From NCBI GenBank assembly GCA_041632295.1, contig JBFKII010000002.1:1-39544 (forward strand): 39,544 bases of DNA, read 5' to 3'. The stretch comes from Anaerolineales bacterium (GTDB lineage Bacteria; Chloroflexota; Anaerolineae; Anaerolineales; JABWBV01). The notes below the pieces were generated by a model that saw only the letters and a program-made list of their open reading frames with translations, was not told the DNA's origin and did not search any database. Positions 20,519 through 24,400 of the stretch are shown here, one piece after another. The stretch's first letter is position 1, and every line of letters starts with the position of its first letter. Both the position numbers and the translations under genes were made by a program.

Positions 20519-22492
20519 ATGGAACAGGTGGACTTTTTGCTGACCAATGCCATCGTTCTGACGATGGACGAGCAAAGGAGTTTCTACGAGCCCGGCGCTT
20601 TGGCCGTTCTCGGAGACAGCATCGCTGCGGTCGGCCCGGAGCAGGATATTTTGGCCGCGTATTCCGCTGCGGAGACGGTCGACTGCGGCGGGAAAGTCCT
20701 GATGCCCGGCCTGATCAACGCCCACACCCATGTGCCGATGACCCTGCTGCGCGGGCTAGCGGACGACCTGCGGCTGGACGTCTGGCTGCTGGGCTACATG
20801 ATGCCGGTGGAGCGCGCCTTCGTATCGCCCGATTTCGTCCGTCTGGGGACCCAGCTGGCCTGTGCCGAGTTGATCCGCTCGGGGGTCACCACCTTCAACG
20901 ACATGTATTATTTCGAAGCTGAGGTGGCCGAGGCCACGGCGCAGGCGGGATTGCGGGCGGTCTGCGGCCAGACCGTGCTCAAGTTTCCGGCTCCGGATGC
21001 CGATTCCTTCGAGGAGTCGCTGGCGCGCGCGGGGGATTTCATCGCCGGCTGGAAGGGCCACCCGCTGATTGTCCCGGCTGTGGCGCCGCACGCACCCTAC
21101 ACCTGCACGGCGGAGATCCTGCAGTTGTGTGCCCGGCTGGCCGCCGAGAACGACGTGCCGCTGCACATCCATCTATCCGAAACCGCCGTGGAGGTTGAAA
21201 ACAGCCGCAAGGAACACGGCATCCCCGTCATCCCGTACGTCAAGGAGCAGAAGCTGTTTGACGCCAAGGTGATCGCCGCGCATTGCGTGCATGTGGACGA
21301 GGGCGAGATGCGCACCTTGCTGCGGGTGGGTTCCGGCGTTGCACACAACCCCTCCTCCAACCTGAAGCTTTCCTCCGGCGTCGCTCCCATCGTCCGCATG
21401 CTGGAGCTCGGCCTGCCGGTGGGCATCGGGACGGACGGCCCCTCCTCCAACAATGATCTGGACATGTTCGAGGAGGTACGCCTGGCCAGTTTCCTGGCCA
21501 AAGGGACCTCGGGGGACCCGACGGTGGTCAACGCGCCTACCGCACTTGAAATGGCTACACGCATCGGCGCTCGCGCCCTGCACCTCGATGCCCTGACCGG
21601 CAGCCTGGTCCCCGGGAAGCGCGCCGACCTGATCCTGGTCGACATCCTGCCCCTGCACAACGCCCCCCGCTTCCAGCGCGACCCAGCCGGCACCTACGCC
21701 CAGATCGTCTTCGCCGCAAAATCCACCGACGTCAGCGACGTGATGGTCAACGGCAGCTGGGTGATGCGCGATCACCAGCTCTCAAACATCGACGAATCAG
21801 CCCTACTGGCCGAAGCCCAGGCGTACGCCCATAAGATAGACGCCTTCCTGATCAAACGCGAGCAGTCGGTGCTTTCCAAGCTGGTGGCCATCGGGGGCGC
21901 CATGGAAGAGGAGAGTTTCGAGGTCCAGGCGAAAGTCCGCATTGCGGAACCGAAGCGAGTGATCGACAACCTGCAGAACCCGGAGATCGAGGTCCTCTAC
22001 CAGCGCCATTACCACGAATACGACACCTATTTCCGCTTCGACGATCTGCAGCAGGGATTCCTGCGCCACCGCGAGGACGAGTTCGTGGATGAGGGCGGCG
22101 AGGTCACCAACGCCCGCTACCGGCTGACCTTGATCGGCCCGACGCGCGAGAGGGAGTTTCCCAGCGACGTACTGCTCTCCCGCAGCCGTTTCCTGGCGCC
22201 AGCCACCCACAGCCTGCGTTTCTATCGCGAATATTTCAAGCCGGACAGTGAAATCTTTATCGAAAAGGACCGCCTGCGCTGGCGGATCATCTTCCGAGAC
22301 ACCACTTTTTACATCAACCTGGACCGGGTGGACAAACCGGACCTGGGATATTTTCTGGAAATCAAAAGCCGCACCTGGAGCCGGATCGACGCCGAGACGA
22401 AATCCAAGTACGTCGCAGACTTGATCGAAATGCTGGGCGCTTCTCCGGAAGAGACCGTGACCGAAGACTACATCCAGATCGTCCAAAGCTGA
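20519..22492 (+). CDS. MtaD/DadD-like amidohydrolase (nucleoside deaminase family) fused to a C-terminal CYTH-like domain
   Basis: PGLINAHTH, HIHLSE, HNPSSNLKL, GTDG..SNN; tail with FEVQAK, DTYF, LRHR, EKDR, FLEIK. Confidence 0.85.
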   Translation: MEQVDFLLTNAIVLTMDEQRSFYEPGALAVLGDSIAAVGPEQDILAAYSAAETVDCGGKVLMPGLINAHTHVPMTLLRGLADDLRLDVWLLGYMMPVERAFVSPDFVRLGTQLACAELIRSGVTTFNDMYYFEAEVAEATAQAGLRAVCGQTVLKFPAPDADSFEESLARAGDFIAGWKGHPLIVPAVAPHAPYTCTAEILQLCARLAAENDVPLHIHLSETAVEVENSRKEHGIPVIPYVKEQKLFDAKVIAAHCVHVDEGEMRTLLRVGSGVAHNPSSNLKLSSGVAPIVRMLELGLPVGIGTDGPSSNNDLDMFEEVRLASFLAKGTSGDPTVVNAPTALEMATRIGARALHLDALTGSLVPGKRADLILVDILPLHNAPRFQRDPAGTYAQIVFAAKSTDVSDVMVNGSWVMRDHQLSNIDESALLAEAQAYAHKIDAFLIKREQSVLSKLVAIGGAMEEESFEVQAKVRIAEPKRVIDNLQNPEIEVLYQRHYHEYDTYFRFDDLQQGFLRHREDEFVDEGGEVTNARYRLTLIGPTREREFPSDVLLSRSRFLAPATHSLRFYREYFKPDSEIFIEKDRLRWRIIFRDTTFYINLDRVDKPDLGYFLEIKSRTWSRIDAETKSKYVADLIEMLGASPEETVTEDYIQIVQS

Positions 22493-22506
22493 TCGCCCAA
22501 ACTGCG

Positions 22507-23085
22507 ATGCCCTGGATCCGGCAGATTCCCTTTGAACAGGCCCGCGGCCTGCTGAAAAAAGAGCTTGAGGCGGCGATCGCCCGCGCCGGCCGAATCTGGA
22601 ACATCGTGCATGTGATGAGCATCCACCCGCGCGCCCTTCGGGACAGCATGCGCCTCTACAGCACCATCATGCACAAGGAATCCCCGCTGTCCCGCTGGCA
22701 GCGCGAGATGCTGGCAACGGTAGTCTCCTGCGCCAACAACTGCCACTACTGAACGCAGGCCCACGCGCACGATCTCCGTGAAGAGCTCGCAAAGGAACCC
22801 GGCGGATTTGATGACCCCGATGGATTCGTCCACGCCGTGGCCAGGGACTGGCGGACCGCCGCGCTCAGCCCTGTCGATCGGGCGCTGTGTGACTTCGCAG
22901 AGAAACTGACCCTCCACCCCGATGCAATGTCCGAAAGCGATCTGGTTGCGCTGCGCAAAGCCGGGCTGGATGACCGCGCCATTCACGATGCCGTCCAGGT
23001 GATCGCCTACTTCAACTACATCAACCGTGTGGCGGATGCCCTGGGCGTGGAGCCGGAGGATTTCATCCCGCCCTGGGGAATTTGA
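22507..23085 (+). CDS. AhpD/CMD-family peroxidase-related selenoprotein (192 aa, Sec at TGA 22750-22752)
   Basis: ORFs 22507-22752 and 22837-23085 are in frame with only one TGA between them; read-through gives NCHY-U-TQAH (AhpD CxxCxxxH) and the AYFNYINRVAD end. Confidence 0.85.
22765..22790 (+). promoter_or_regulatory. Candidate bacterial SECIS hairpin
   Basis: CAC-GATCTCC-GTG stem-loop with the G 18 nt after the UGA; weak lower GCG/CGC stem. Confidence 0.45.
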
Positions 23086-23458
23086 ATGCCACCCGCATCT
23101 GCCACAGGAGGGCCAGCAGCGGGCCGGCCGGTGCGGCGACCAGGGCCAGCATCGCCCAACCTAATGCGCCCATCTGGTCTGAAAGGGTCAGAAAGGTGTT
23201 CATCCCGGCCAGGCTGAAGAAAAGCGGTCGCCTGGGCAGGCCCGAGACAACCCAGCCATAAAACAGCCCGTCGATCAGCAAACCCAGCAGGAGTATCCAC
23301 CACCACGCGCCGCCCCTGCTGACCCCGGTATCTCCCCCCGCCAGGATCCAGGCTCCCACCCCAAACCACAGCAGCATATTTGCCGCCAGCAGCCCGCGCG
23401 CGATCGCAAGCCAACCCCGGGACGGGTGCAGACGGTTTCCTGGTTTATCGGCAGGCAT
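23063..23458 (-). CDS. Small hypothetical membrane protein
   Basis: 131-aa ORF with 3-4 hydrophobic segments filling the gap; overlaps the 3' end of the selenoprotein gene by 23 nt. Confidence 0.6.
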   Translation of the reverse strand: MPADKPGNRLHPSRGWLAIARGLLAANMLLWFGVGAWILAGGDTGVSRGGAWWWILLLGLLIDGLFYGWVVSGLPRRPLFFSLAGMNTFLTLSDQMGALGWAMLALVAAPAGPLLALLWQMRVAFKFPRAG

Positions 23459-23629: not shown

Positions 23630-24400
23630 ATGACGCAGGCCCTGGATTTTACGAGAGAGCTCGTCCGCCAGACGGGAGAAATTCTGCGGGGGTATTTTGG
23701 CAGGCCTGCAATCGCCTCCAAAAAAAAAGAAGACCGCACGCTTCTGACCGAGGCGGACCTGGCGGCGAACGAACACATCACTGCCGCCATACGGGCCGCT
23801 TTTCCCGATGACCACGTTTTGAGCGAAGAGCAGGATACGAGCTTCCCCGGGGACGGGCGCTCGACCTGGGTGGTCGATCCGCTGGACGGCACGACGAATT
23901 TCAACCAGGGGGTTTATTACTGGGGGGTGTCCATTGCTCGCGTGGAAGGCGGCTGGCCCAGCCTGGCGGGCCTTTATTTCCCCATGCTTGACGAGCTCTA
24001 CGCCGCACAGTCCGGGAAAGGCGCCACCCTGAACGGCGCACCCCTGCGGGTCCCCCCCGACGATGGCGCCGGCGTGGCGTTCTTCACCGCCGACAGCCGC
24101 CTGCACCGCCGCTACCGCTCCGAAATACGGATCAAGCCCCGCATCCTGGGCTCGGCGGCTTACAACCTGTGTGCCGTAGCTCGCGGTCTGTCGGTGATCG
24201 GATTCGAATCGGTGCCCAAGATCTGGGACATCGCCGCCAGCTGGCTGGTTCTCGTGGAAGCCGGCGGGACCTGCATCGCACTGCAGGACAACCTGTTTCC
24301 GATGATAGCCGGCCAAAATTACGCCGGCTACCCGATCCCGATCCTGGGAGCCGCCAGCCCAGCCCTGGCTGAAAAATCCCGCGCCTTGATTTCAATTTGA
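23630..24400 (+). CDS. Inositol monophosphatase family protein
   Basis: TEAD, SEE, WVVDPLDGTTNF, RILGSAA, WDIAA. Confidence 0.93.
   Translation: MTQALDFTRELVRQTGEILRGYFGRPAIASKKKEDRTLLTEADLAANEHITAAIRAAFPDDHVLSEEQDTSFPGDGRSTWVVDPLDGTTNFNQGVYYWGVSIARVEGGWPSLAGLYFPMLDELYAAQSGKGATLNGAPLRVPPDDGAGVAFFTADSRLHRRYRSEIRIKPRILGSAAYNLCAVARGLSVIGFESVPKIWDIAASWLVLVEAGGTCIALQDNLFPMIAGQNYAGYPIPILGAASPALAEKSRALISI

Follow-up and report, generated by a model that had tools for sequence, protein, structure and literature searches.

The question raised by this locus is whether a TGA codon lying within an otherwise continuous reading frame ends translation or is read as selenocysteine (Sec). The window, meaning the entire 39,544-nucleotide stretch of DNA from an Anaerolineales bacterium that was analysed, carries two short open reading frames (ORFs) on its forward strand, at 22507..22752 and 22837..23085, which lie in one phase in the table 11 ORF list. 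Both starts are of the form 3n+1, and the ORFs therefore share a common frame. The first encodes 81 amino acids ending in ...VVSCANNCHY, immediately followed by the TGA in question, and the second encodes 82 amino acids from an internal GTG start; these are the N-terminal and C-terminal fragments of standard gene calling. When 22507-23085 is translated with TGA as U, a single frame of 192 residues is obtained, closed by a TGA stop at 23083-23085, in which the sole internal TGA is U82 at 22750-22752 and the two ORFs are bridged by 28 residues (TQAHAHDLREELAKEPGGFDDPDGFVHA). The raw letters at 22741-22752, tgc cac tac tga, read C79-H-Y-U82, and are followed by T-Q-A-H86. The original prediction had proposed that the two ORFs are in frame, are joined by an open stretch containing U and together form a 192-aa selenoenzyme. 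The joined frame and its length are as it described, and the comparisons set out below support the Sec reading. In our assessment, it is very probable that the gene at 22507..23085 (+), with 192 codons including one Sec codon, yields a functional AhpD-like redox protein by Sec decoding.

The read-through product is an AhpD-like, peroxidase-related protein. It scores 148.4 bits against TIGR01926 ("peroxidase-related enzyme"; NCBIfam), for which the cut-off is 81.8, with residues 11-185 aligned to profile positions 10-177 of 178. In a genome-level search the window gene, at 140.3 bits, was the sole TIGR01926 match in the genome. Membership in the CMD/AhpD-like fold is indicated by a Pfam CMD match above the gathering score (PF02627; 42.5 bits, cut-off 23) and by conservation of Glu67 and His86, and the AhpD core domain model TIGR00778 is matched at 28.4 bits (cut-off 27.8). 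Two other models were considered and set aside, namely canonical AhpD (TIGR00777), at 22 bits (cut-off 191.95), and NF041238 (AhpD_rel_CFYUT), at 74.4 bits (cut-off 175), with an alignment confined to profile positions 152-337 of 357. Among solved structures, the best HMMER match is PDB 6k40, annotated as "alkyl hydroperoxide reductase AhpD" (E 4e-30), which aligns to residues 12-184 and so runs across both half-ORFs. It is followed by 2oyo, 3c1l, 2pfx and 2prr, the solved set spanning 188-197 aa and E values of 4e-30 to 4e-17. In these alignments the two half-ORFs jointly make up one domain. U82 lies opposite the second Cys in the C-V-Y-C motif of 6k40 and the C-L-Y-C motif of 2oyo, and H86 opposite the conserved His, so that the TGA sits exactly where it had been predicted to sit, at the second Cys of the AhpD CxxCxxxH motif.

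The remaining elements of the active site are likewise in place. The CxxU redox motif at 22741..22752 consists of Cys79 (22741-22743), His80, Tyr81 and Sec82 (TGA 22750-22752), with both Cys79 and the TGA found in 86/86 aligned family members. The His of CxxCxxxH, encoded at 22762..22764, is His in 86/86 as well. Glu67 (22705..22707) corresponds to the Glu that AhpD-like active sites conserve; it lies in an REML motif ("qreml" opposite "erell" in 6k40) and is Glu in all 86 sequences. In Mycobacterium tuberculosis AhpD, the catalytic centre is composed of Cys130 and Cys133 with a proton relay of Glu118, His132 and His137 (PMC3141380). The window protein keeps this arrangement with Sec in second place, and by analogy we infer that its Glu67 and His86 may act as proton-relay residues.

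Sec-containing proteins of this kind are already known, as the original prediction had stated. A Sargasso Sea study of 2005 introduced, as a new selenoprotein family, an AhpD-like protein with a CxxU motif, assigned to COG2128 and represented by 27 sequences (PMC1088965). The main families of the GOS set include "AhpD-like 1" (COG2128, CxxU; 299 selenoproteins and 902 Cys homologues) and "AhpD-like 2" (pfam02627; PMC2398784). A review of 2026 has an entry for an AhpD-like protein under TIGR01926 with CxxU (PMC13188914), and BSepDB holds an AhpD-like family page (PMC13326102). The window gene has the features of this family: it passes TIGR01926, has an in-frame TGA at the second Cys of CxxC, has Cys homologues at that column, and is followed after the UGA by an apical loop containing G. 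It differs in nothing essential, except that the stem of its putative Sec insertion element (SECIS) contains a U·C mismatch. By profile and motif it is thus a member of the AhpD-like selenoprotein family known since 2005, a real but ordinary gene. To have called it "hidden" overstates its novelty, since the AhpD-like CxxU family has been published, and the window gene opens no new question about selenoproteins.

Comparison with other characterised or modelled systems places the gene further. The solved Cys-type AhpD-like proteins 6k40, 2oyo, 3c1l, 2pfx and 2prr ("uncharacterized peroxidase-related protein") resemble it in length, in near end-to-end alignment and in the E...N-x-C-x-Y-C-x-x-x-H block, but have Cys where the window has TGA, and their sequence match is moderate. 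The M. tuberculosis AhpD (TIGR00777) is a characterised adaptor that reduces AhpC, and shares the CxxC-xxx-H centre and the Glu/His relay (PMC3141380); unlike it, the window protein fails TIGR00777, and its gene is adjoined by no lipoamide or AhpC partner genes. NF041238, which corresponds to the Sargasso Sea "hypothetical protein 1" (PMC13188914), shares the C-x-Y-U-T motif and the aligned stretch at profile positions 152-337, but its model, at 357 positions, is about twice the size of the window protein, whose score lies below the cut-off.

If the TGA is a Sec codon, it would be expected to recur at the same position in related genes. A six-frame search found homologues in 16 of 40 related genomes (17 of 41 with the window's own). 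Of the 20 returned loci (L018-L037), 17 were examined, the window's own included; L029, which is broken into three pieces with 2 TGA, was dropped before the count, as were L033 and L034, which are 23-25% matches inside unrelated stop-free frames some 760 aa long. The motif C-x-[YF]-U is present, with TGA, in all 16 of the relatives' homologues, at 27-70% identity. A close orthologue was not found by six-frame search in the two genomes of the same genus. A species-wide scan, with one genome per species, gave 342 confirmed relatives, and the best 80 of these (51-68% identity) have TGA at the Sec codon in 80/80 cases. One of the search patterns carried Cys at the site, and the scan was therefore not biased towards TGA. 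Some of the 80 loci are the same places as the related-genome loci (e.g., L046 and L020, which have equal coordinates). The genome labels of the 80 include Chloroflexota (Anaerolineae among them), Gemmatimonadota, Planctomycetota, Actinomycetota, Acidobacteriota, one Calditrichaceae and an Eiseniibacteriota metagenome-assembled genome (MAG), labels in which MAG binning errors are possible. Recurrence of TGA at one exact column in 16/16 and 80/80 loci is thus beyond chance. Cys forms appear at this column only in more distant homologues, at no more than 47% identity (P0002 and P0004 at 46-47%), which answers the original prediction's question of whether relatives bear Cys or TGA at this codon.

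A few loci in this set have peculiarities of their own. One genome (G022) has two near-identical copies of the gene, L020 on contig C1 and L035 on C9, scoring 281 and 278 bits and both with the TGA, which may reflect recent duplication or assembly redundancy. At L023 (G018:C1:198929-199030), just downstream of an intact gene, the last 18-34 residues are matched a second time; this short match is 89% identical over residues 174-191, has a TAG in its longer stretch and resembles the remnant of a duplicated 3' end. L029 (G037:C89:5940-6447), whose three pieces lie in different frames with a TAA in addition to the 2 TGA, has possibly decayed; its genome is small (1.6 Mb).

In public gene calls, genes of this family appear mostly in pieces. 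HMMER searches of 1.84 billion representative predicted proteins gave 4422 relatives at E <= 1e-3, of which 150 are listed. Among these listed matches, all those of at least 57% identity are 159 aa or shorter; they include four proteins of 81 aa that span query residues 1-81 (P0042, P0102, P0107 and P0136), many others of 86-123 aa span approximately residues 84-191, and the longest near-full-length ones are at most 52% identical. Among the matches listed, the expectation that pipelines call the gene as two fragments is thus well matched. In the 13 longer sequences retrieved, the Sec column is occupied by Cys in seven (P0002, P0004, P0008, P0009, P0011, P0013 and P0014), Trp in four (P0003, P0005, P0006 and P0007), Gly in one (P0010) and Ser in one. 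The Trp and Gly forms would most simply be TGA translated under another table by the gene caller. The value of the present reading is accordingly one of annotation in the main: standard calling leaves the gene as two pieces of some 81 aa each, and the correct reading recovers the sole TIGR01926-type redox enzyme identified in the genome.

The portion of the gene beyond the TGA appears to be maintained as protein. For residues 83-192, Nei-Gojobori dN/dS values between the window and its homologues are 0.05-0.30 in 10/10 pairs, and for residues 1-81 they are similar, at 0.12-0.33, in nine pairs, the tenth having yielded no dS value; saturation, with dS above 1 in many pairs, makes all of these ratios rough. 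On these sequence comparisons, purifying selection plainly acts on the part that follows the TGA.

The genome from which the window derives also encodes most of what Sec insertion would require. In the assembly (4.12 Mb in 457 contigs, 88% complete), a tRNA-Sec was found at 77.2 bits, above the Rfam cut-off, and was named by ARAGORN as tRNA-SeC with anticodon TCA; selA and selB were matched at 531.6 and 359.2 bits, respectively. selD was not found in the assembly, either with the family model (0 candidates) or by tblastn with the SelD proteins of the same-genus genomes G001 and G002 (no match at E <= 0.01). Where G001 has selD, contig C387 of the window's own genome has a different gene beside the shared neighbour, and a gap that could hold selD was not located. 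As the assembly is 88% complete, the missing selD does not show absence, and the 12% incompleteness is the simplest reason for it. In 31 related genomes, including both congeners, selD scores above the cut-off and contains a single in-frame TGA, presumed to be its own Sec codon. The original prediction had asked for selA, selB, selC and selD; the tRNA gene and the first two stand, and selD is the exception. It had also named a genome devoid of Sec machinery, with relatives all carrying TGC or TGT, as the sign of a nonsense mutation or sequencing error, and neither half of that description fits: tRNA-Sec, selA and selB are present, and the relatives have TGA.

Sec also appears to be in use elsewhere in this genome. 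Beyond the window, a single in-frame TGA occupies a redox position in each of three AhpC-TSA (PF00578) frames: C63:7447-7827 (+), C407:1226-1687 (-) and C66:8754-9107 (-), with the motifs ...PKDDTPGUT..., ...RHFGUVHC... and ...GSYTUPYC..., respectively. These are candidate Prx or Prx-like selenoproteins, and together with the window gene these peroxiredoxin-family frames point to a set of selenium-dependent antioxidant proteins in the genome.

Bacterial Sec codons are expected to be accompanied by a SECIS hairpin within the coding region, and a candidate for this element lies at 22770..22789 (+). Its 5' arm (22770-22776, CGAUCUC) and 3' arm (22783-22789, GAGCUCG) enclose the loop CGUGAA (22777-22782), with a U·C mismatch between 22773 and 22786. 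In the family, the hairpin begins 17 nt after the TGA and has 7 bp and a 6-nt loop. When the 51 nt starting at the TGA were aligned for 11 orthologues, RNAalifold returned a 7-bp consensus hairpin in which columns 21-27 pair with 34-40. No compensatory change was seen among these 11 closest orthologues; the SECIS claim was therefore not rested on them, and the set was widened to 88 sequences. In the widened set, 94.5% of the 616 hairpin cells are paired, against 21-46% in slid controls. Pair 24-37 is CG in 75 sequences, UA in 10, UG in 1 and other in 2, and pair 21-40 is CG in 46, UA in 9, UG in 8, GC in 5 and other in 20. Altogether 24 compensatory cells were counted, compared with 6.0 ± 2.0 in shuffles, a control that ignores relatedness, and the observed value was reached by 0/500 of them.

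Codon usage tells the same story from the side of the apical stem. Leu90 is CTC and Glu93 is GAG in 86/86 sequences each, frozen synonymous sites in a gene where conserved Leu positions elsewhere use 5-6 codons and conserved Glu positions mix GAG and GAA. The Arg91 codon is CGT or CGG only, and never CGC, the codon dominant elsewhere in the gene. The three apical pairs, forming the stem CUC/GAG, are invariant in 88/88, as is most of the CGKG loop. This freezing of synonymous sites lends the putative hairpin independent support. Additionally, the bacterial SECIS model calls for a loop of 3-9 nt with a G among its first two positions and G or U next, a spacing of 16-37 nt, an upper stem of at least 4 bp and a minimum free energy of -7.5 kcal/mol or lower (PMC13188914). 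The window element has a 6-nt loop, G then U at positions 2-3 and a spacing of 24 nt, all three within the model. Across the 80 species-wide loci, this stretch folds locally, usually into the conserved hairpin, at -8.1 to -15.9 kcal/mol. An Rfam scan of 22400-23200 at E <= 10 returned no SECIS family, and the three sub-threshold matches that it gave (Scr4115, M23 and drz-agam-1) were judged to be chance. Different hairpins are found in the TGA-containing paralogue groups L028, L030, L031, L032, L036 and L037 (27-44% identity), where they begin about 13-17 nt after the UGA and have loops that start with GGU or GU, as in GGCC-GGUCU-GGCC and ACGGAGC-GGU-GCUCCGU; the SECIS thus varies between subfamilies.

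The window's own copy of the hairpin is the weakest of the 88. Its stem amounts to 3 bp, the U·C mismatch and 3 bp, with a predicted energy of -4.8 kcal/mol, above the model bound of -7.5, and 76/200 shuffled sequences fold equally well. The 81 nt after the TGA in fact fold less stably than shuffles (z = +1.96; 198/200 shuffles are equal or better). Folding of the single sequence is therefore without signal, and the hairpin emerged only from the comparison of homologues. In a 60-nt context, a competing CACG/CGUG pairing has a probability of about 0.66, versus 0.07-0.13 for the conserved hairpin, and forcing the latter costs 1.7 kcal/mol. This competing pairing, at 22768-22780, is the small hairpin that the original prediction had drawn. 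It does exist and is thermodynamically favoured in the window, but it was rejected as the functional element, since 44/85 Arg91 codons are CGG, which appears to break it (judged by eye from the alignment); the pairing conserved in the family is 22770-22776 with 22783-22789. The search for a SECIS thus did uncover a family hairpin with covariation, at a pairing other than the one first proposed.

Three other readings of the locus were weighed against Sec decoding. A Cys-type AhpD-like gene in which the TGA arose by nonsense mutation, or by faulty sequencing or assembly, would account for the two short ORFs under table 11, and an error of this kind could be pictured in a draft genome broken into 457 contigs. 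Such a pseudogene or artefact would not be expected to have its TGA at the same column in 16/16 and 80/80 homologues, nor to be joined to purifying selection downstream and RNA-level constraint beside the codon, and this explanation is accordingly highly improbable. Still less credible is a reassigned code, in which TGA would specify one of the standard amino acids in this organism, Trp or Gly, under codes 4 or 25. This would agree with the public full-length homologues that have W (P0003, P0005, P0006 and P0007) or G (P0010) at the column. However, TGA is the stop of 20/41 open frames of at least 250 codons in the window, and it terminates both flanking Pfam-supported genes, an amidohydrolase (20519-22492) and an inositol monophosphatase (23630-24400). 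The GC content is 61%. The column is moreover Cys in the solved homologues, and a tRNA-Sec with anticodon TCA is present along with selA and selB.

The third reading accepts the gene as a selenoprotein gene by descent and holds that its SECIS has been degraded by the U·C mismatch, such that read-through is inefficient or lost, the main product is the 81-residue fragment and the gene is in early decay. The low stability of the window hairpin, which more than a third of shuffles equal, the favoured competing fold and the missing selD all fit this account, as does the rarity of the mismatch: at pair 24-37, only the window and its closest orthologue, in G004, are unpaired among the 88 sequences. 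The same orthologue also provides the argument against it. Among 99 loci, G004 is the only one to share the window's upstream amidohydrolase (78% identity), and it is therefore a true syntenic orthologue from which it follows that the mismatch is inherited and old. Between the two, residues 83-192 have a dN/dS of 0.10 at a saturated dS of ~2.2, a rough value, and are free of frameshifts or extra stops. The three invariant apical pairs and the invariant loop positions are, furthermore, intact in the window. Degradation of the SECIS is thus unlikely, albeit less so than the two readings above, and Sec decoding of an intact enzyme is preferred.

Under Sec decoding, codon 82 would be read as Sec by SelB and tRNA-Sec, directed by the coding-region hairpin at 22770-22789 acting as a bacterial SECIS. 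The Sec would replace the second Cys of the CxxC redox centre to give C79-H-Y-U82, with Glu67 and His86 retained in the role of AhpD-type proton-relay residues. The protein would then be an AhpD-type thiol/selenol oxidoreductase, in which the U82 selenolate would serve as the nucleophile and would be resolved by C79 through a U82-C79 selenenylsulfide, assisted by Glu67 and His86. It may act by reducing a peroxiredoxin-type partner or directly on hydroperoxides. Whereas the frame, the family membership, the Sec/Cys column, the TGA conservation, the selection downstream, the conserved hairpin and the presence of tRNA-Sec, selA and selB are observed, Sec insertion itself, the catalytic role and the substrate are predicted, the catalytic picture from what is known of the family.

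The only modestly interesting feature of this locus is that a SECIS with a natural mismatch has been maintained under purifying selection. The window gene belongs to an orthologue clade, defined by C-x-Y-U-x-x-x-H-x-x-D-L, which has the Sec codon in all 96 homologues examined (some of which are the same places), in genomes labelled as at least seven phyla, and has no conserved neighbours. These features raise the possibility, which we regard as speculative and rather doubtful, that the clade has its own coding-embedded SECIS, a compact and horizontally portable class. Should Sec insertion persist in the window/G004 lineage, SelB would need no more than the three apical pairs and the loop as its determinant. 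Were this so, a portable SECIS class would have been defined by a natural "mutant" with both a mid-stem U·C and a competing fold.

The surroundings of the gene vary between genomes. When the three window neighbours were compared by tblastn with the 99 homologous loci, a conserved operon partner was not found; the upstream amidohydrolase is common to G004 only, and no functional link is therefore proposed. This upstream gene (20519-22492, +) shows synteny with G004 only and ends 14 nt before the selenoprotein start. It encodes 657 aa, of which Pfam covers only residues 26-415 (amidohydrolase families), leaving a C-terminal portion of approximately 240 residues without a Pfam match at E <= 0.001. 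On the opposite strand, a 131-aa ORF at 23063-23458 (-) shares 23 nt with the 3' end of the selenoprotein gene; it has no Pfam match and, on visual inspection, seems hydrophobic.
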